Part shown: positions 2,207 through 60,166 of the stretch, in pieces
Position numbering within the stretch: position 1 is the stretch's first letter
Layout: each line of letters starts with the position of its first letter
Virus record (IMG/VR): IMGVR_UViG_3300017727_000008
Coordinates: 1 to 61,312 of that record
Length of the DNA stretch: 61,312 bases
Strand: one strand, 5' to 3'
Source: a virus
Lineage: Duplodnaviria; Caudoviricetes
Notes under the pieces: generated by a model
What the model was told of the DNA's origin: nothing
Databases searched by the model: none
Seen by the model: only the letters and a program-made list of their open reading frames with translations
Translations under genes and position numbers: made by a program

Positions 2207-3976
2207 ATGGCAACACTTGATAAGGTAACAGGAGAACTGCGTCTAAATAACGCTGCGTCTGAACAACGAGACAAAGAACAGTTAGGGCAACTTGTCACTC
2301 TCAACAAACAGTTTGAGAAGTACTTCAAGTCTATGTCTGCTAGTAAGGGTGACGATCTAGAGAAAGAGCGAGAGAAGAAGGAAGAGAAGGCTCCTGCTGG
2401 TCGTGGTGATCTCGTTGCGGGTGGCGCTGCCGTTAAAGGGTCTAGTCTGGGTGTTATTGGAGCAGCACTTGTTGCGGCTGGTGCCGCAGTAGTCGGTGCT
2501 GTTGCTGGTATTTTCCGTGGTTTCGTTGATAGTCTGGATCTCTTTACCAAAGGGTTCTTCAGTAAACAAATCAAACGTATTACAGATGGTATCACAGATT
2601 TTTTCAAGCGTTTCGGTGGTGGTGTAAAAACTGAAGTATCATTTCTCGATAAGGGTCTTGAAGGGTTCAGGAGAGGCGTATTCAACTTCGTAAATGCATT
2701 CAAAAAGGTGGGGACTACAGTTGGGGCTGTTGGAAAAGAGGTTACTATAGTAGCAAGTGACTTCAAAAGTTTCCCTGCTAGACTGGGTGCTGCGTTTGCC
2801 GTATTCCGTCCAGCCTTCAATAACCTACAACTATTGTTTAACGATATCAAGGGTGTGTTCTCCAAGATAGGTACGGTTGCAGATACAGCAAAGGATGCTG
2901 GTGGGTTTATTTCTAAGATCGCAGAAGTAGCCAAACCTTTCTTTAGTGTATTTCAACGACTAGGTAGGTTCCTTGGCGGGCCTATCACCGCATTCATCTT
3001 TGGTGTCATCGATGCATTCAGTGGTGCTATGACAGGATTCGAGGAAACCGAAGGTAGTCTGGGAGAGAAGATCTTTGGTGGTATCATGGGTGCGATAGCT
3101 GGATTCGTCTCAGGATTCATCGGTGGTATCCTTGACCTTGGTAAGATGCTTGTTGGTTTCGTTGCAGGTCTGTTCGGGTTTGAGGATTTCAAAGAAAAAC
3201 TTGCTTCCATCTCTATCACTGATTTTATCTTTGATTCCCTAATGAAGTTAAAGGATATGGTATTAGACTTCGTTAGAAGTCCCTTGGATAGTGTGAAGAG
3301 TATCTTTGGTTTCGGTGATGACGAAGAAGACGCTCCTCCTGAAGTGAAAGAAGGTAACAAAGGTCTACAACGTGCGTTACGAAAACAAGAACAAGCACGA
3401 CGATCCGCTAGTGGTCAAGGGCCGCAGGTAACTGTCACGGAACCACCACCTCAAACAGTCCTAAAGACACAAGAAGCAACTGCGCCTGGGCTCAAGACCA
3501 AACCCATGAATGATGCGACAAAGGAGTTCACTGCCTATGCCGATTCAGAAGAAGGTAAAGCAGAGTTTGCTAGGAATGCTGCGGAACGTGAGGCAAAAAA
3601 GGCAGCGATGCTTGCAAGGGCAGAGGCAGCAAAAGAAAGACGAGCAGCGAGACTCGCGAATCCAGAGGTAAGGGCATCAGAAATTGAAAGACGTAGGTCT
3701 CAGTTAGCAAGAAACGAGGGACGTTTCGCTGGCATGTCTGCCGAAGAACGAAATACGAATGCTGGTGCTATAACGGAGAGACGTATTAGCGAACTACAGG
3801 ATCAGATCAAGTTCCTTGAGTCACAAGGTGCTGGTGGTGGTGCTACGGTCATTGCTCCACAGACTACTACCAATAACAACCAGAGTAGTTCTGCGATGTA
3901 TGGTGACCCATCACCCGCGACAGATGACCTTGATAGAGCCGCTGATAATTTCCACAATGTCAGTTGGGTAAACTAG
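2207..3976 (+). CDS. tail tape measure / baseplate hub protein (gp29-like)
   Basis: 589 aa, Gly/Ala/Phe-rich amphipathic helical repeats, N-terminal coiled coil, directly after gp26/gp51. Confidence 0.65.
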   Translation: MATLDKVTGELRLNNAASEQRDKEQLGQLVTLNKQFEKYFKSMSASKGDDLEKEREKKEEKAPAGRGDLVAGGAAVKGSSLGVIGAALVAAGAAVVGAVAGIFRGFVDSLDLFTKGFFSKQIKRITDGITDFFKRFGGGVKTEVSFLDKGLEGFRRGVFNFVNAFKKVGTTVGAVGKEVTIVASDFKSFPARLGAAFAVFRPAFNNLQLLFNDIKGVFSKIGTVADTAKDAGGFISKIAEVAKPFFSVFQRLGRFLGGPITAFIFGVIDAFSGAMTGFEETEGSLGEKIFGGIMGAIAGFVSGFIGGILDLGKMLVGFVAGLFGFEDFKEKLASISITDFIFDSLMKLKDMVLDFVRSPLDSVKSIFGFGDDEEDAPPEVKEGNKGLQRALRKQEQARRSASGQGPQVTVTEPPPQTVLKTQEATAPGLKTKPMNDATKEFTAYADSEEGKAEFARNAAEREAKKAAMLARAEAAKERRAARLANPEVRASEIERRRSQLARNEGRFAGMSAEERNTNAGAITERRISELQDQIKFLESQGAGGGATVIAPQTTTNNNQSSSAMYGDPSPATDDLDRAADNFHNVSWVN

Positions 3977-3979
3977 CAT

Positions 3980-4005
3980 AAAAAAAGGGGCACCGAAGTG
4001 CCCCT
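3980..4005 (-). terminator. Rho-independent terminator with UUCG tetraloop
   Basis: Minus strand reads AGGGGCAC-TTCG-GTGCCCCT-TTTTTT, downstream of gp32 at the convergent junction. Confidence 0.85.
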
Positions 4006-4021
4006 CAAAGGATAGAAGAGT

Positions 4022-4945
4022 TTAGTCTTCTGCTGCAAGTTTAGCAAAGTAACTTAGAGTATCATCCTCGTCTGCTGCTGCCGTGATATTCGGTTCAGGA
4101 GCAGAGGCGATAACCTGTGGTTCTTGTTCACGTGCAGATACTACTTCCGCAGTCTCGGTCAGTGAGTCATTCTTGATGGTTGCACCAGCACCCGTTGATT
4201 GACCCAGTACAACTTCCAAACGACCTTTCAGTTCGTCATAGGCCTTGTACGAAGACGGAGCAGTAAACTCTGACATGTCGTGCAACTGATTATAAGTTGC
4301 TTCGAGTCGCGTCTCATCTGCTTCCAGTAACGGTGCAGGAGCCTTGAACTCAGACTTATCATAGTTACGATATCCCGCAACATTACGAATCTTCAGTTGG
4401 AAGTCAGCACCAGTCCAGAAGTCAAACGGATTGATCGGTTCTTCGCCTGGAAATTCTGGTTGCATCTTATCCATGATCTTATCAAAGATCTTCTTGCCGA
4501 AGTCGTACATGAATACTTTACCTTCGTTGGCAGGATTGGCAGGATCGTTCATAACCATGATGTTCGCAACATAGTGAAGTCTACGCTTCTGTTTACGTGC
4601 GATTTCTTTGTCCTCTTCAATACCAGAGTTCCATAGTCGTGAGTTGTATTCACTCACTGGGTCATTGTTACCCAGAGTCGTGAGAGACTTCTCAACATAC
4701 CATTGACCCGTAGGCCCTTTGAAGAAGTGATCGAAGTAACGTACCCAAGGGAGTTCTTGACCTTCTGCCGCAGGGAGGAAACGAACAACGGCATAACCGT
4801 TACCTGATTCATCTACCGTAGGTTTCCAGAAGCGCAAGTCTTCGTACTTGTTGTTACCTTGCTTGGCACCGCCTCCCATCGCCTGTGCGGCTGCTGCCAA
4901 CTGGGTGATGTCGGTACGGTTATTTTTTAGATTTGCAAAAGACAT
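4022..4945 (-). CDS. gp32: single-stranded DNA-binding protein
   Basis: FWKPTVDESGNGYAVVRFLPA, GKKIFDKI, GYRNYDKSEF and acidic tail DDTLSYFAKLAAED. Confidence 0.95.
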   Translation of the reverse strand: MSFANLKNNRTDITQLAAAAQAMGGGAKQGNNKYEDLRFWKPTVDESGNGYAVVRFLPAAEGQELPWVRYFDHFFKGPTGQWYVEKSLTTLGNNDPVSEYNSRLWNSGIEEDKEIARKQKRRLHYVANIMVMNDPANPANEGKVFMYDFGKKIFDKIMDKMQPEFPGEEPINPFDFWTGADFQLKIRNVAGYRNYDKSEFKAPAPLLEADETRLEATYNQLHDMSEFTAPSSYKAYDELKGRLEVVLGQSTGAGATIKNDSLTETAEVVSAREQEPQVIASAPEPNITAAADEDDTLSYFAKLAAED

Positions 4946-38336: not shown

Positions 38337-40322
38337 TTATCCTTCACAGGCAATGCATTCATCACCCTCTTGAGTTTCATGGTTCTCGTTCAAATGCGCC
38401 ATCAAATCATCCCAACCACCAACATACTCACCTTCTAGGTAGATTTGTGGTACGGTCTTGACTTTACGACCTGTGACTTCGGCAGCAGACTTTCCGATTT
38501 CTTTTAGGTCAATATAGTCAAAGGGGATTCCTCTCAATGTCAACTCTTCTTTTGCCATAGCGCAGTATGGACAATCGTCTTTTCCGTATACTATAGTACG
38601 CATATCACCCGCAAGTGCAATACGTTCTACCTTCTCGGATACATTCTCTGCTCTTTGTTTTGCTTCTGTACGCAAGTAATACAGACCTTTGAGTCCGTCC
38701 TTCCATGCTCTCAGATGCACTTGGTTTACATAAGACTTCTCGGCTCCAGCAGGGAAAAATAGATTCACCGACTGACCTTGACAGATAAATGGTTGACGTT
38801 CTGCTGCGTGTGTAACCACCCAGTTTTGGTCAAGTTCATCTGCTGTCTTAAAGATTGCCTTCTCTCCTTCAGTAAAGAAGGGAAGGTGTTGTACCGAACC
38901 TTTCTTGGTAATGATTGATGTCCAAGTAGATTCGTTGTTTTCACCCTTCTCATTTAAGAGTTGAGTAAGGTATTTATTCTTTACGAGGAACGAACCAGCG
39001 CGTGTCCTATGTGTGTACGCATTTGCCTTCAAAGGTTCGATAGATGGACTCGTTGATAGGATTACACCACTTGAGGCATTTGGCGCAATCGCAAGAAGAT
39101 GGGAGTTCCTTCGTCCATATCCCTCTCCATCTGGATACTCTCCTCTTTCCAAGGCAAGCAAGATGGTCTCGTCTTCTGCTTCGGATTTGATTCGTTCAAA
39201 GACTGTTCTGTTGATTTCTCTTGCTGCTTCGGATTCCCACGCAACACCGTGCTTTTGCAATAGGGAATGAAATCCCATGGCTCCAAGACCAATGCTTCGT
39301 TCACGTTCAGCAGAGTACTTGGCTCTGGTAATAGTGTTGGGTGCTTCATCGATGAAGAACTGCAAGACATTGTCAAGCATACGAACAAGGTCACGGATAA
39401 TAGTAGTATCTTTCCATTCATCATAATATTCCAAGTTTAGGGAGGATAGACAGCACACTGCCGTTCTATCCTCGGAGGTTGGTAGGTGTATTTCGTTACA
39501 TAGATTAGATCCGTGGATCTTCAGTCCACGATCTTTCAATGGTGTTGGTAGGTCTGCGTTTGCGGTATCAATAAAGTTCAGGTATGGTTCACCTGTACGG
39601 AATCGGATCTCAAGGATACGCTCCCATAGTTTACGTGCATTGATAGTTTCTTTTACCGAATCATCTTTTGGATCGCGTAATCCAAACTCGGCATTCGCAT
39701 GAACCGCCTCCATGAACTCATCGGTGATATTGATTGCGTTATGTAGGTTCAATGCCTTGCGTTGTACATCACCCGTAGGGATACGCATATTCATAAACTC
39801 AACGATGTCAGGGTGGTGGATATCCATGTACGCAGCGTAGGAACCCTTACGAGTCTTACCCTGACGATACGCAATCATGTCTGCGTCTACTGTGTGTAGG
39901 AAGGGCATAGGGCCAGGCGCGATATCTGATACCGTTCTTACATCAGACCAATGACCACCGACACCACCACCATACACAGACAACCATCTGAGTTCTGATG
40001 AGTGTCCGATTAGACCTTCGAGGGTGTCAGGTACATAGGTGAGGAAGCAAGAGATGGGCATCCCTTTGTCTGCTTTGGTACCATTGGGTGCATTAGAAAG
40101 AACCGGACTCGCGAACATGAACCACTTATTGGACACATAGTCATAGAGACGTTGTGCCAATTCATCATCCATCTCGTTTCGATACTTAGACCATGCTTCT
40201 GATGCCCGTTTGAAACCCTCTTGGGGACTCTTCTCATAATCACGCAAATAAAAGTCTTTTAACATTCCCACTGCGTATTCAGCGAGGAGACTATCTTTCT
40301 TCTTATCAATTTTTACGGGCAT
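38337..40322 (-). CDS. nrdA: ribonucleotide reductase class Ia alpha subunit with embedded glutaredoxin domain
   Basis: ISCF, SNLCNEI, CCLSSLN, IAPNASS, KGLYYLR, then CPYC...TVPQI..GG and terminal CIACEG; no ATP cone. Confidence 0.97.
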   Translation of the reverse strand: MPVKIDKKKDSLLAEYAVGMLKDFYLRDYEKSPQEGFKRASEAWSKYRNEMDDELAQRLYDYVSNKWFMFASPVLSNAPNGTKADKGMPISCFLTYVPDTLEGLIGHSSELRWLSVYGGGVGGHWSDVRTVSDIAPGPMPFLHTVDADMIAYRQGKTRKGSYAAYMDIHHPDIVEFMNMRIPTGDVQRKALNLHNAINITDEFMEAVHANAEFGLRDPKDDSVKETINARKLWERILEIRFRTGEPYLNFIDTANADLPTPLKDRGLKIHGSNLCNEIHLPTSEDRTAVCCLSSLNLEYYDEWKDTTIIRDLVRMLDNVLQFFIDEAPNTITRAKYSAERERSIGLGAMGFHSLLQKHGVAWESEAAREINRTVFERIKSEAEDETILLALERGEYPDGEGYGRRNSHLLAIAPNASSGVILSTSPSIEPLKANAYTHRTRAGSFLVKNKYLTQLLNEKGENNESTWTSIITKKGSVQHLPFFTEGEKAIFKTADELDQNWVVTHAAERQPFICQGQSVNLFFPAGAEKSYVNQVHLRAWKDGLKGLYYLRTEAKQRAENVSEKVERIALAGDMRTIVYGKDDCPYCAMAKEELTLRGIPFDYIDLKEIGKSAAEVTGRKVKTVPQIYLEGEYVGGWDDLMAHLNENHETQEGDECIACEG

Positions 40323-43744: not shown

Positions 43745-44005
43745 TTAATATGAGAATCCGACTGCAACACCAAGTACACCAGCGTTTGCAGCGAATATTT
43801 TATCGGTAGGTGATTTCTTTACTACCTCTGATGCACCCGCAGCCAAAGTGAAAGTACCTATATCAGTACCTCCAGCTTCTTCTAGGGTCACTAAGTGAGC
43901 GGATGTGTGAGTATTAATCAACCTAACTGCCGAGGCTGCACCAAAAGTGGATGCAGCACCGCTAGTAGTACCACACGCTGCCTGTGTTCCTTCAAGTATG
44001 ATCAT
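43745..44005 (-). CDS. small beta-rich putative virion protein
   Basis: Gly/Ala/Thr-rich; GAGGAG RBS. Confidence 0.55.
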   Translation of the reverse strand: MIILEGTQAACGTTSGAASTFGAASAVRLINTHTSAHLVTLEEAGGTDIGTFTLAAGASEVVKKSPTDKIFAANAGVLGVAVGFSY

Positions 44006-44985
44006 TAACAATCTCCTCGACGTTTTGCCATTCTTTCTAAGAATGCCTTTGCTTCTCTGGTACGAGCATCATATGCTTTCTTTTCTTTCTCGGTGTCACG
44101 CTTCATATCACCAGCAAGTTGAGCACGTGCCATATCAACAAGAGATACAGAACCACTCTGAGTTGCAGGGTCTACTACCATTGCTTTCTCTTCAATGGTC
44201 TCAACATCACACTCACCGCAGCAATCTTCGGTACCACAATTCTCGTGATCTTCCTTTACAGGTGCTTCTGTTGATTTGACAACATTAGTGTCACCCGCAG
44301 CATTGTCCTGTGGACGCTTACCAGACTTTGCCTTAGTTGCTTGTCCAGCCTTGGTTGCAGTCTCAGGATTTTTTGTACCATCTTCGGTCTCAGACTTATG
44401 CTTGTCGGCAAACTCTTTAGACTTAGGAGATTCCTTGTCCATGATACCTTCAGGTTTGGTAGCACCTTTAGTCTCTTTGCGTTCACCCAGAATGTTCTCA
44501 AACATATTCAGAAGTTCTTCGGTTGCTTCACCGATCTTAGAAATCTCTGCGGTCTTGGCATTAGATGCAACTTTCTTCTTGTCATCCTTCTTACCAGCAA
44601 CCTTGGGGGCTTCTTCTTCTTCGCCACCCTCGTCCTCTTCTTCTTCTTTCACAGAGTACTTCTTACCAGCAACTACGAACTCGTCTTCACCCTTTTCTTT
44701 AGCAGCATTGAGTGCTTTAGTGAATGCGTTACCTTCTTCTTTTTCTTTATTCTTTGCGGGTTTCTTACCACCATCGATGGCATCATCGGTAGCAGCACGG
44801 CGCTTGTGTAAATACTCGTCCGAGGAATCTACATCGCCGTCATTGTCGATGTCCTTGTCCTTACGATCTTTGAACTTCTTGTCGTTCGCTTTATCGTCAA
44901 CAGGATCTAGTTTTTTCTCACTAAGATTAGCATTCACCACGGAGGCCCATGCAGCACCTAGTTTTTGGATATCAGATGTTTTCAT
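44005..44985 (-). CDS. highly charged putative internal/core protein
   Basis: Lys/Glu-rich; DKDIDNDGDVDSSDEYL loop; CGTEDCCGEC cluster. Confidence 0.6.
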   Translation of the reverse strand: MKTSDIQKLGAAWASVVNANLSEKKLDPVDDKANDKKFKDRKDKDIDNDGDVDSSDEYLHKRRAATDDAIDGGKKPAKNKEKEEGNAFTKALNAAKEKGEDEFVVAGKKYSVKEEEEDEGGEEEEAPKVAGKKDDKKKVASNAKTAEISKIGEATEELLNMFENILGERKETKGATKPEGIMDKESPKSKEFADKHKSETEDGTKNPETATKAGQATKAKSGKRPQDNAAGDTNVVKSTEAPVKEDHENCGTEDCCGECDVETIEEKAMVVDPATQSGSVSLVDMARAQLAGDMKRDTEKEKKAYDARTREAKAFLERMAKRRGDC

Positions 44986-44996
44986 TTTGTCTCCGT

Positions 44997-45281
44997 TCAC
45001 ATCCAGAAGTATTTGACTATACCAGCAATAACTGCTACAGATATAGCGTATACTACTTTATTAATGATGGCAACCGTTCTCGCGTTGTCATCTACCTTTT
45101 TCTCTATGTCATCCAACTTGGCGGAGAACTTATTCATCCGATCAAAGTTATTGTGGTTATTCTTTTCTATGGCAATCAACTTTTCTTCTGCACGAGCAAG
45201 ACTAATCATTGCTTCAGATAGTCTATCTATCTTCTCTTCAATACGATCTAGTCGTTGCGTCTGTGTACCTGATTCAGCCAT
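44997..45281 (-). CDS. coiled-coil protein with C-terminal TM
   Basis: RLDRIEEKIDRL heptads, hydrophobic C-terminus. Confidence 0.6.
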   Translation of the reverse strand: MAESGTQTQRLDRIEEKIDRLSEAMISLARAEEKLIAIEKNNHNNFDRMNKFSAKLDDIEKKVDDNARTVAIINKVVYAISVAVIAGIVKYFWM

Positions 45282-45321
45282 AAAAATTTCCCATTTACAT
45301 ATAGAGTATTACTCGTTTCTC

Positions 45322-45369
45322 TCAGTCGCAACACTTACAGTTGCAACATTCGCAGCATGAACATCTCAT
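45322..45369 (-). CDS. 15-aa Cys-rich micropeptide MRCSCCECCNCKCCD (not in ORF track)
   Basis: AAGGAG 8 nt upstream, ATGA overlap, late promoter at 45401-45408; 8 of 15 residues are Cys. Confidence 0.6.
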   Translation of the reverse strand: MRCSCCECCNCKCCD

Positions 45370-46070
45370 CGATAGTTCTCCTTTGAAACAGCGTTATGTT
45401 TATTTATAAGATTCCGATTTTCTAATCTGTAACTACAGATCTTATATTCCCAATATTTCGGGATTCTTACTCCTAAATACTCACCTATACGAGTGAGTTC
45501 GTTTGTTGTCCCCGTCGAATCAAATAATAATTCATACGGATCGACCAATAAAAAATCATGGTCTTCTGGGATTGTCTCCATGTACACATTAAAGTAATGT
45601 GCCATAGACTCCCAAGGTCTGTTCCAAAACTGTTCAGTGTCCAATATACCATCATCAATCATGGCCTGACCTTGTGCATGGTCAGATGGTTTCACTAGTT
45701 TCAGTCTTGCCAGTTGTTCTGTGTACTCAAGACTCTTTTTATTTCTAGGCATAAAAATAATAGTCTTGGTCTCACCCCAATCATTCCAAAGATAGTTAGA
45801 CCAGAACTCTTGGTGTAGAACAAACCCGTAACCGTGGTCAAGTCTAACATTCCAGAGTTCTTTATTCCACTCAGGTTTCTGTACCTGAAAAGGATTACCT
45901 CTAGTCACCTCTATTTCGTGTGACTGGTAATCCTCTCGCTTCAAAAACCATCGCGAAGTCTCTTTGTCTTGTTGTAGTGGTTTTTCAGCAACACCTTCTA
46001 GTTGCTGTAACAAACCACCAAAAAACTCACCACCAGCACCACCACGGTACAGTAGATTTATAATTTTCAT
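45366..46070 (-). CDS. hypothetical protein (sulfotransferase/P-loop-like N-terminus)
   Basis: INLLYRGGAGGEFF. Confidence 0.5.
   Translation of the reverse strand: MKIINLLYRGGAGGEFFGGLLQQLEGVAEKPLQQDKETSRWFLKREDYQSHEIEVTRGNPFQVQKPEWNKELWNVRLDHGYGFVLHQEFWSNYLWNDWGETKTIIFMPRNKKSLEYTEQLARLKLVKPSDHAQGQAMIDDGILDTEQFWNRPWESMAHYFNVYMETIPEDHDFLLVDPYELLFDSTGTTNELTRIGEYLGVRIPKYWEYKICSYRLENRNLINKHNAVSKENYR
45401..45408 (-). promoter_or_regulatory. late promoter TATAAATA
   Basis: Exact consensus inside the 3' end of the upstream CDS. Confidence 0.6.
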
Positions 46071-57855: not shown

Positions 57856-58356
57856 TTATAACTTTTTCGTATTAGTTCCGAAAAATGTGAGGGAGATACG
57901 GTCTGCGCCACCGAAGTGTGGATTGTGGAGGGTCTGGGCATCAAAGGCAATGGCACGATTCTCTACCCACTCAACATACTCATCCTTCACGGTAGTCCCT
58001 TGTCCCTCTGCACCAAGCATGTAGAGTACGCCAGACCTCTCGAAGTTACGATCAATGTGTTGTGGGATATTCGCACCACGGCCCTCTAGGGTAGGAAAGG
58101 TCTCAAAGGGGTGTCGGAAAAATGTCATCAACTGGACTTTGACACCTAGCACCTCATTGATTTGTGTCGAGATATCGTCAAACGCATATCTGAGGTTATC
58201 GCTACGGTAACAATCTATCCAGTCTGCTACCGCATAGTATGCACCACCTCGTCTCTCACCATAGTCGTAGGCACTATACATGCGACACTCATGATATGCC
58301 TGTACCAGTTCATCAAAGGCATCAAGTTCCAGAAAGTTATCAACTACCTGTATCAT
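57856..58356 (-). CDS. 2OG-Fe(II) oxygenase
   Basis: VVDNFL, HID, GVLYM, NRA..FD, H, R.SLTFF. Confidence 0.7.
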   Translation of the reverse strand: MIQVVDNFLELDAFDELVQAYHECRMYSAYDYGERRGGAYYAVADWIDCYRSDNLRYAFDDISTQINEVLGVKVQLMTFFRHPFETFPTLEGRGANIPQHIDRNFERSGVLYMLGAEGQGTTVKDEYVEWVENRAIAFDAQTLHNPHFGGADRISLTFFGTNTKKL

Positions 58357-60166
58357 GAGTATATATGTCTATCATCTCTTCCTTACCCTTGACCTTGATC
58401 TGGCCTATCGATTTGGACTTGATGTCTATGAGTTGATCTTTGGTAAAACTGGAATAGATGGTCTTATTGTCGATGTATTCTCCGCGAGCTGCTGTTGCTT
58501 CAAGGCGGGCGGCAAGGTTGACAGAGTCTCCGATAACACTGTAGTCAAAGCGAGATTCACTACCCATATTACCAACAATGCAATCACCTGTATTGACACC
58601 AGTACCGACATTGATGGGGGGTAGACCTTCGTCAAGAAATCGTTGTCTAAGTACATTAGTCTTCTCTTCTATCTCTATTGCAGATTTGACTGCCATCTCT
58701 GCGTGGTTGTTACAAGGTAGTGGTGCGTTCCAAAATGCCATGATACAATCGCCCATGTATTTATCAATAGTTCCACCATTTTTCAAAATAATATTTGTCA
58801 TTTCATTGAGATAGTTGTTGATCAATGTGACCAGTCCTTCAGGATCGTCATTGTTCTTATAGTGTTCAGAGATGGGTGTGAACCCCACGATGTCCATGAA
58901 GAGAAATGACATCTCCTTCTTCTCTCCACCTAGTTTCATCAGACTAGGATCTTCTGCAAGCATATTCACCATATCAGGAGATAGGTATGTGCCAAACTGT
59001 CCCTTGATCATCTGCTTTGCTTTGAACTGAGTGTAGAACTGTACAAAGGAGCCGTGTGCGAATACTATGATCATGGTCAGAATAGGGAATACCGGATCGA
59101 CTAGATAAAAGAAAGTAGAGAATGTGTCTGTTGCAAAGTAGTAAGAACCTGCAATGAAGACAGCAAAACACATACCGGATACTGGTATAGTACTCGCCTT
59201 GAGCAGAGCTAAGAGTATAACACATAAAACCAAAGTTGTCAAGAGCTCATACAAAATAAATTCATCGGGTCTCTTGATGACCACTCCATCGATCATAGTC
59301 TTGATTAGGTTTGCCTGAATGTCATGGGGGTACATAGATCCCATCGGTGTAGAGACCACATTAGATCCTTCAAAGGTAGCACCTAATATTGCGATTGACC
59401 CGTCTGGTATCTGATCCATATCAACCAATGAGTATCTCTTGAACTTGTTCCAGTATGCGATATTGACATTACCAGTACTGTCCGTCACAACCGACTTGAA
59501 GGCCGGGATACGCACAAACTCAATGCCATAGTCATCCGTGGATATCTGGTAGGATATGTCTCCTGCCGCGACCCTGAGTATGTCTAATGCAAAGGCAGGG
59601 TACAGTCGGTCATCAAAGTTTACCAGTAAAGGTTGTCTCCGAACAATACCGTCGATGTCTTGTGCCGAAGATATTGTCCCATAACCCCACGCAGCACTAT
59701 GGATTTTCTCTTGTGCAAATAACATACCAGCGGAAGGAAAGAGGAAAGATTCTACCGCTTTGTCACCAAAAGCGGCAACTCCTATCCGTGGTGGTCTGTA
59801 GTCAGTTTTCGTCCGATTAGATGGTGTGATCGCAACAACAGACTGTTTGAATGACAATATATCAGCAAAGTCATCGTCACCACCCCACCTGTCTTCCTCC
59901 GAAAACAAGATGTTGATACCGATCAGACTCTCACCCATCTTGTCGATTTCCTGACCAAGCGTCTCACGGGGTATGGGATACTGCCCCAGCTTGTCTAGGG
60001 CCTTCTCATCTATATCTACCAGTACAATCTGTTCTGATACGGACACCTCCTGTGACCGTTGCATAGAGTCAAAGAAAGAGAGTCTTGCACTCTCCAGTAG
60101 AAAGGGGTCTAATAACCTTATTGTCACCATGACAATAAGAGTAACAAGTACATGCCATGTCTTCAT
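58340..60166 (-). CDS. CHASE2-domain membrane class III adenylate cyclase
   Basis: N-terminal TM, IVLVDIDE and DIDGIVR (CHASE2), three TMs, FMDIVGFT, DKYMGDCIMAFW, DYSVIGDSVNLAARLE. Confidence 0.92.
   Translation of the reverse strand: MKTWHVLVTLIVMVTIRLLDPFLLESARLSFFDSMQRSQEVSVSEQIVLVDIDEKALDKLGQYPIPRETLGQEIDKMGESLIGINILFSEEDRWGGDDDFADILSFKQSVVAITPSNRTKTDYRPPRIGVAAFGDKAVESFLFPSAGMLFAQEKIHSAAWGYGTISSAQDIDGIVRRQPLLVNFDDRLYPAFALDILRVAAGDISYQISTDDYGIEFVRIPAFKSVVTDSTGNVNIAYWNKFKRYSLVDMDQIPDGSIAILGATFEGSNVVSTPMGSMYPHDIQANLIKTMIDGVVIKRPDEFILYELLTTLVLCVILLALLKASTIPVSGMCFAVFIAGSYYFATDTFSTFFYLVDPVFPILTMIIVFAHGSFVQFYTQFKAKQMIKGQFGTYLSPDMVNMLAEDPSLMKLGGEKKEMSFLFMDIVGFTPISEHYKNNDDPEGLVTLINNYLNEMTNIILKNGGTIDKYMGDCIMAFWNAPLPCNNHAEMAVKSAIEIEEKTNVLRQRFLDEGLPPINVGTGVNTGDCIVGNMGSESRFDYSVIGDSVNLAARLEATAARGEYIDNKTIYSSFTKDQLIDIKSKSIGQIKVKGKEEMIDIYTHDTGS

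Follow-up and report, generated by a model that had tools for sequence, protein, structure and literature searches.

Introduction

The shortest metallothioneins are the fungal Cu-thioneins, of about 25 amino acids (aa), the CC-x-CC motif is that of the vertebrate metallothionein alpha domain, and mycobacterial MymT is controlled by the CsoR-like repressor RicR. We know of no metallothionein as short as 13–18 aa, the length of the peptides considered here. The analysis started from an eight-cysteine micro-open reading frame (micro-ORF) on the minus strand of the 61-kb IMG/VR virus record IMGVR_UViG_3300017727_000008, which is estimated to be about 37% complete; "the window" denotes this whole stretch of DNA, at its full length of 61,312 nucleotides (nt). 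The micro-ORF and its relatives elsewhere are referred to as the Cys8 family.

Few-codon, Cys-rich ORFs are also known as regulators. Polycysteine leaderless small ORFs (sORFs) of mycobacteria are Cys-responsive attenuators ahead of cysteine-metabolism operons, and the attenuation depends on pairing of the Cys codons with the downstream Shine–Dalgarno (SD) sequence in an RNA duplex (bioRxiv 10.1101/834739). Full-text searching of the literature found no description of phage or SAR86 peptides like those of the Cys8 family, and the family is missing from protein databases because gene finders cannot see genes of 13–18 codons.

Results

A 15-codon micro-ORF with eight cysteines

Read directly from the minus strand, the micro-ORF (45322–45369) runs from an ATG at 45369–45367 to a TGA at 45324–45322 and encodes, in 15 codons plus stop, the peptide MRCSCCECCNCKCCD, in which Cys accounts for 8 of 15 residues. 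The Cys block reads C-S-CC-E-CC-N-C-K-CC, preceded by M-R and followed by D and the stop; S, E, N and K serve as spacers, aromatic residues are absent and the initiator Met is the only hydrophobic residue. The SD sequence AAAGGAG (45378–45384, minus strand) stands at a spacing of 8 nt from the ATG. The sequence-only reading, an earlier description of this DNA made from its letters, had proposed a 15-aa, 8-Cys micropeptide with this ribosome-binding site (RBS), and every letter was borne out on re-reading. It had also held that the Cys codons alternate between TGT and TGC and do not form a simple repeat. Both codons are indeed used, in a 4/4 mix, while their order (TGT,TGC,TGC,TGT,TGC,TGT,TGT,TGC) shows strict alternation to be wrong; Tandem Repeats Finder saw no tandem repeat at the micro-ORF, in agreement with the second part of the claim.

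The codon motif TGYTGYNNNTGYTGYNNNTGY is present once in the window, where 100 shuffles lead one to expect 0.01 occurrences, and eight Cys within 14 codons were reached in 0/100 mononucleotide shuffles, the shuffle maximum being seven, seen once. Around the micro-ORF, the in-frame stop-to-stop span is 23 codons and holds one start codon. The ATG shares bases with the TGA of an upstream 234-aa ORF in the form ATGA. Fusion of this ORF to a Cys tail by frameshifting was considered and dropped, as no slippery heptamer was seen at the ATGA overlap; it is also disfavoured by the other family members, in which the upstream gene stops well short of the micro-ORF.

A recurrent family in phage contigs

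Relatives were sought with codon patterns of increasing stringency. A first, loose pattern (CCxCCxCxCC, where x is any residue), applied to IMG/VR and metagenome contigs, was dominated by poly-Cys microsatellite frames; two SD-led look-alikes, MQNKCKCCECCTCSCCE and MKTKCNCCKCCNCTCC, were among the matches listed. Barring Cys codons at the spacers gave at least 116 stretches, including at least 15 short ATG-led ORFs, and among the matches listed 15/15 short ORFs had an extra Cys two residues upstream and a central K/E, neither of which this second pattern demanded. The strict pattern, TGY NNN TGY TGY RAR TGY TGY RNN TGY RNN TGY TGY (C-x-CC-[KE]-CC-x-C-x-CC), was listed completely and returned 59 stretches in IMG/VR, compared with 0 for the reversed pattern.

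All but one of these stretches (58/59) are ORFs of 13–18 codons, with the ATG 0–5 codons ahead of the first Cys and the stop 0–2 codons past the last CC, such that the peptides take the form M-x(0-5)-C-x-CC-[K/E]-CC-x-C-x-CC-x(0-2). One of the 58 is clipped by a contig end and one is the twin contig L090, identical to the window and the match through which the window's micro-ORF (C-x-CC-E-CC-x-C-x-CC) enters the family. The phage members represent 36 unique sequences at the DNA level and 32 at the peptide level, the commonest peptide being MCKCCKCCNCTCC. An SD-like word occupies positions −17 to −4 in 33/36 unique members, and in 27/36 the next ATG follows within 10 nt of the stop, which often falls within the next RBS (TAGGAG, TAAGGAG). 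At every Cys position of the family both TGT and TGC are used. Across 46 unique phage and cellular ORFs, 137/138 residues at the spacers x0, x2 and x3 are K, N, S, T, D, E, R or Q, where the strict pattern permitted I, M, V, A and G at two of these spacers and any residue at one. The window peptide fits this family in its Cys spacing, central E, length (15 codons within 13–18), own SD and polar spacers.

Start, stop, SD, extra Cys, K/E and polar spacers are features independent of the pattern, and because of them we consider the peptide to be under selection. By these features the micro-ORF is a genuine protein-coding gene and no chance ORF; it belongs to a recurrent, unannotated family of marine phages and some marine bacteria, and the hidden micropeptide gene of the sequence-only reading thus emerges as one of many with intact start, stop and SD.

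The lone strict-pattern stretch outside the micro-ORF class lies in a contig of a giant-virus bin (L337, ~2496–2531), within a 48-codon stop-to-stop frame of CCECC/CCDCC repeats that has no ATG. Another viral contig (L139, minus strand, 962–1090 in reverse-complement coordinates) holds a 38-aa ORF (MSWLM...) in which a hydrophobic segment at the N-terminus leads into CCDCCKCCCC and then an acidic tail. Its appearance is that of a Cys-rich micro-protein anchored in a membrane, and its Cys spacing is unlike that of the Cys8 family.

Database searches with individual members returned little. NCBIfam gave no match for two stop-to-stop translations of family members, and a 32-aa Porticoccaceae member was absent from a collection of 15 billion proteins. 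Against cultured phages, tblastn with the 32-aa member gave no match and blastn with an 81-nt member gave only matches of E = 2–8, results whose meaning is limited by the BLAST low-complexity filter. The best blastn match, Vibrio phage helene, was rejected as a family member on reading its sequence.

An insertion at the window locus

We aligned the window with its closest relatives (alignment A1: the window plus L011, L013, L012, L019 and L016). Compared with these, the window carries an insertion of about 83 nt (45307–45389, minus strand; boundaries uncertain by about 12 nt), which contains the SD and the micro-ORF and extends the upstream 234-aa ORF by about 8 codons. On one side lies TATAAATA (45401–45408, minus strand), a T4-type late-promoter-like motif about 32 nt ahead of the micro-ORF start, and on the other the conserved leader of a downstream 94-aa gene. 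The relatives closest by identity of the 94-aa protein (L011, 95%; L012, 88%; L013, 83%) have an upstream gene ending in ...LINK/S.. with the same CTTATAAATA, a block invariant throughout A1, and the ATG of the 94-aa gene about 35–45 nt later.

We take TATAAATA to be the T4 late promoter consensus; the window has 8 copies, against 2.3 expected. Because the motif is kept in relatives that have no micro-ORF, where it sits at the same place ahead of the 94-aa gene, we read it as the pre-existing promoter of that gene. The sequence-only reading had correctly placed promoter and RBS inside the end of the upstream gene, both being within the 3′ end of the 234-aa ORF, but had taken the micro-ORF to have a late promoter of its own, and this did not hold up, as TATAAATA pre-dates the insertion. 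On the evidence of the alignment, the RBS of the micro-ORF arrived with the insertion and the promoter did not.

The 94-aa gene has 110 relatives in IMG/VR, and the best 80 of 110 were examined by scanning 400 nt upstream of each for ORFs of 6–60 aa in which Cys numbered 4 or more and made up 25% or more of the residues (5/80 loci had less than 200 nt upstream). The sole other carrier is L010, a contig of 8 kb with a sequence identical to that of the window; among the best 80 of 110, a Cys-rich micro-ORF upstream of the 94-aa gene was absent from 79/79 other syntenic loci. The sequence-only reading had named the lack of a syntenic Cys-rich ORF in relatives as a sign against a real gene. As a refutation this result is misleading, because the gene is a mobile insertion and not vertically kept. 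The upstream 234-aa ORF has 9 related IMG/VR loci, of which the 8 non-identical ones all have no C-terminal extension.

No donor of the window insertion was found, its likeness to other family members being restricted to the ORF core. The insertion-bearing sequence is complete in 14 DNA runs from 8 studies, and one of these runs may be that of the source sample. The micro-ORF is also covered with 0 differences by contigs from two RNA libraries of two studies (X15, 45220–45370; X18, 45293–45443), which is to be read as presence in those libraries and not as transcription.

Gain and loss of the cassette in other phages

A second set of 80 loci, collected by way of a DUF5824 protein in the flank and hence independent of the Cys motif, contained an intact family member in 9/80 and decayed copies in none. 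The orthologous loci L509–L512 (76–94% protein identity) have no micro-ORF and differ from the carrier L503 (micro-ORF at 1450–1491) by a clean indel of about 47 nt, and the RBS of the micro-ORF in one phage is the RBS of the downstream gene in the other, with the cassette supplying a second RBS. Counting both sets (80 loci at the window gene and 80 at DUF5824), decayed copies were found in 0 of 160 flank-ascertained loci. To judge by these comparisons, the family acts like a very small SD-plus-ORF cassette, often gained and lost and intact wherever present. Such clean indels show that a micro-gene can enter between a promoter and a gene while disturbing neither.

Over the 54 loci with a called downstream ORF, the genes 3′ of the phage micro-ORFs sort into 22 similarity clusters. 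DUF5824 proteins are found at 19/54 loci and a PD-(D/E)XK nuclease behind PhoH at 6 loci; other downstream genes encode a cytidylyltransferase-like and a primase-like protein. In L382, a gene for the iron–sulfur (Fe-S) protein IscU (3630–4058; NifU_N, PF01592, E = 1.3e-37) stands directly 3′ of the micro-ORF, and in L479 the gene directly 3′ encodes IscA/HesB (3207–3521; PF01521, E = 2e-11), a context that L477 has as well. A class-3 lipase gene lies upstream in both L477 and L479.

Cellular copies and their metal-related neighbourhood

The strict pattern was then applied to one genome from each of 185,579 cellular species. This yielded 15 stretches, comprising 9 micro-ORFs, 2 actinobacterial protein tails and 4 other frames. 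The micro-ORFs belong to SAR86 (4), Porticoccaceae (2), Woeseiaceae (2) and an archaeal Woesearchaeota bin (1), an example being MCKCCKCCKCSCCAK; no strict-pattern micro-ORF was present in Pelagibacterales at this sampling of one genome per species. The two tails are in proteins of Actinoallomurus (L482, 519 aa) and Streptomyces (L485, 458 aa), where they are long, rich in Cys, Asp and Glu (CDCCDCC...) and have the same Cys spacing; judged by sequence, they are fused, much longer relatives or look-alikes.

At the SAR86 copy L484, a MerC gene (PF03203, E = 1.1e-22) begins 103 nt downstream of the micro-ORF. Divergent from the micro-ORF are genes for a CsoR/RcnR-type repressor (PF02583, E = 6.3e-27) with C...H-x3-C, which we take to be the fingerprint of a Cu(I) sensor, an HMA-domain protein that has a His-rich N-terminus and the motif M-x-C-x-x-C, and a MerT-like protein, the last a weak match. 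A MerC gene lies within 2.5 kb in 4/5 SAR86 loci. The SAR86 copies L583–L587 (genomes G001, G002, G003, G004 and G248) share a TATAAT-like hexamer followed by exactly 6 nt and the ATG (5/5), and an SD-like word was absent from the four copies scored; in this AT-rich DNA, the SAR86 copies look leaderless. Their micro-ORFs occupy a variable region a few kb from atpG/D/C-like, glmU-like and glmS-like genes, as judged from their N-terminal sequences.

Genes around the micro-ORF in the window

Downstream of the micro-ORF, the 94-aa gene (44997–45281, minus strand) encodes an XhlA-like protein with a coiled coil and a C-terminal hydrophobic segment (phrog_937 'hemolysin', E = 9e-07). Upstream, the 234-aa ORF (45366–46070, minus strand), whose stop overlaps the micro-ORF start, has no Pfam or PHROG match. 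Family scans found no metal-related family among the window neighbours of the micro-ORF. No maturase of ribosomally synthesized and post-translationally modified peptides (radical SAM, cyclodehydratase, lanthipeptide synthetase etc.) was found among 8 neighbouring window ORFs, or among 18 representative neighbour proteins scanned near other family members (8 phage-context, 10 cellular-context).

The nearest cultured relatives of the window phage are Pelagibacter phage HTVC008M and the Methylophilales Melnitz phages, both Kyanoviridae. At the locus itself, neither megablast with 3 kb nor tblastn with the 234-aa protein gave a match to cultured phages. Elsewhere in the window, a 608-aa protein (58340–60166, minus strand; phrog_35576) has 45.6% aa identity to an HTVC008M protein annotated as adenylate/guanylyl cyclase and is kept in Melnitz phages, and a ribonucleotide reductase large subunit (38337–40322, minus strand) ends in a thioredoxin-like domain (phrog_22, residues 559–649). 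A Lys/Asp/Glu-rich protein of the window (44005–45000, minus strand) and the ORF upstream of the micro-ORF in L465 have the motif ...DKDIDNDGDVD.SD..LHK.R.A... in common (phrog_22379, phrog_4359), and proteins of this type recur next to micro-ORF loci in different contigs.

Discussion

A mobile gene for a candidate metal-binding peptide

The best reading of this mobile micro-gene, which we consider about an even prospect, is that it is expressed late and that its peptide is a minimal metallothionein-like metal binder. The chelator suggested by the sequence-only reading is, by analogy, plausible, and the case for it is drawn from the resemblance to metallothionein motifs, from the analogy to RicR–MymT and from the neighbourhood of L484. 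In this HTVC008M-like myovirus, an insertion of about 83 nt that includes SD and ORF slotted between the existing late promoter TATAAATA and the XhlA-like 94-aa gene; on the favoured account, the micro-ORF would be transcribed late, on the leader of the 94-aa gene's mRNA. Its SD would start translation, and the ATGA overlap might in addition couple this to the upstream gene. Once free, the peptide, with eight thiolates and polar residues between them, could wrap Cu(I), Zn(II), Cd(II), Hg(II) or an Fe-S type cluster and so buffer or sequester metal during infection.

Several points weigh against this reading. The Cys positions were set by the search pattern, and their conservation is hence no independent evidence; likeness between members stops at the ORF and the flanks are unalike, which leaves common descent and convergence inseparable on sequence. 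Most phage contexts (DUF5824, cytidylyltransferase-like, PhoH/nuclease, primase) are uninformative about metal, the Fe-S neighbours make up 2 independent contexts of 22, and MerC is absent from the 10 kb around the SAR86 locus L585. As the SAR86 genomes are related, MerC at 4/5 loci is close to one observation, and in a version of the pattern without the first-Cys requirement the motif was found in only 5/266 genomes of the SAR86 order. HTVC008M and Melnitz, the two cultured relatives checked, have 0 pattern matches. The RNA-library contigs may derive from DNA and give neither strand nor level, and a peptide of such shortness may be unstable.

Alternative roles of the micro-ORF

The peptide could instead be functional with thiols that serve something other than chelation, as a redox or thiol buffer, as an Fe-S carrier acting with IscU/IscA, or by inhibiting or partnering a (membrane) protein of host or phage, and we regard such a role as unlikely. 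The two independent phage contexts directly before IscU or IscA would suit a carrier, and the micro-ORFs of the window, of L189 and of the SAR86 loci L583 and L586 are each followed by a gene for a membrane or hydrophobic protein. A general partner is nevertheless missing from the downstream genes, which are DUF5824 at 19/54 loci and varied at the rest.

It is unlikely, in our assessment, that the micro-ORF is a cysteine-sensing regulatory upstream ORF, in which ribosomes would pause on the eight Cys codons at low Cys-tRNA and thereby alter translation of the next gene. The position of the window micro-ORF in the 5′ leader of the 94-aa gene's late transcript speaks for such a sensor, and the 27/36 members with the next ATG within 10 nt are arranged such that ribosomes halted at the last Cys codons would sit over the next RBS. 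The polycysteine leaderless sORFs of mycobacteria (bioRxiv 10.1101/834739) provide a precedent, and the leaderless-looking SAR86 copies resemble that system. The window copy, however, is SD-led about 32 nt after TATAAATA and not leaderless. Its leader (45396–45262) has no excess RNA structure (fold z = 0.00 compared with shuffles), in the minimum-energy fold the ORF and the RBS downstream of it are not paired with each other, and a terminator is lacking on that strand. The downstream genes belong to 22 unrelated families, none of which reads as Cys biosynthesis, the window's own being XhlA-like. Stalling would also leave unexplained why the spacing C-x-CC-x-CC-x-C-x-CC, the length and the polar spacers are fixed across phages, Gammaproteobacteria and an archaeon. 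The leader for late genes that the sequence-only reading had offered beside the chelator finds no support in the fold, the terminator search or the 22 downstream families.

A more specific form of the sensor idea, in which the micro-ORF would be a ribosome-borne gauge of host cysteine in phages of sulfur-starved ocean bacteria, with ribosomes halted by low Cys-tRNA on or beside the following RBS and thereby retuning late-gene output, appears distinctly improbable to us. If true, it would make the cassette a portable, plug-in sulfur sensor usable before any gene, such as those for the XhlA-like membrane protein, IscU or IscA.

That the ORF is a non-functional by-product, contained by chance in a young lineage-specific insertion, would agree with its absence from all 79 other syntenic loci (0/79) and the lack of homologous flanks elsewhere, yet is highly improbable given 57 further phage and 9–10 cellular ORFs that are built in the same way and intact without exception, compared with 0 matches to the reversed pattern, no decayed copies in 160 flank-ascertained loci, and the complete insertion-bearing sequence in 14 DNA runs (the source sample possibly among them).

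Implications of a metal-binding Cys8 peptide

Should the Cys8 peptides bind metal, they would be, to our knowledge, the shortest gene-encoded metallothionein-like molecules, and mobile ones, common to abundant ocean phages (HTVC008M-like myoviruses and others), SAR86, Porticoccaceae and Woeseiaceae. Trace-metal or thiol handling would then join the host functions altered late in infection by marine phages. At 15 residues, the window peptide is easy to synthesise and assay.

Comparison with known systems

The mycobacterial polycysteine sORFs and the Cys8 micro-ORFs are alike in being unannotated, few-codon, Cys-rich and located at the 5′ end of a transcript (bioRxiv 10.1101/834739). They differ in that the mycobacterial sORFs have consecutive Cys runs, whereas Cys8 has a fixed spacing, SD-led phage copies and no predicted duplex. 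With the small gene cassettes of T4-like phages, that is, morons and shuffled small-ORF modules, Cys8 has in common the clean indel at gene junctions and an RBS of its own; as a difference, no flanking repeat or promoter–stem-loop element was seen at the Cys8 copies, and their likeness ends at the ORF.

The gene neighbourhood of L484 recalls RicR–MymT of mycobacteria, as L484 likewise stands beside a CsoR-type repressor and metal transport genes. Compared by composition and context, the Cys8 peptides share with metallothioneins a Cys content above 50%, the arrangement of CC and C-x-C, polar spacers and the absence of aromatic and hydrophobic residues, and they depart from them in being only 13–18 aa long and in travelling as a phage-borne SD-plus-ORF cassette.

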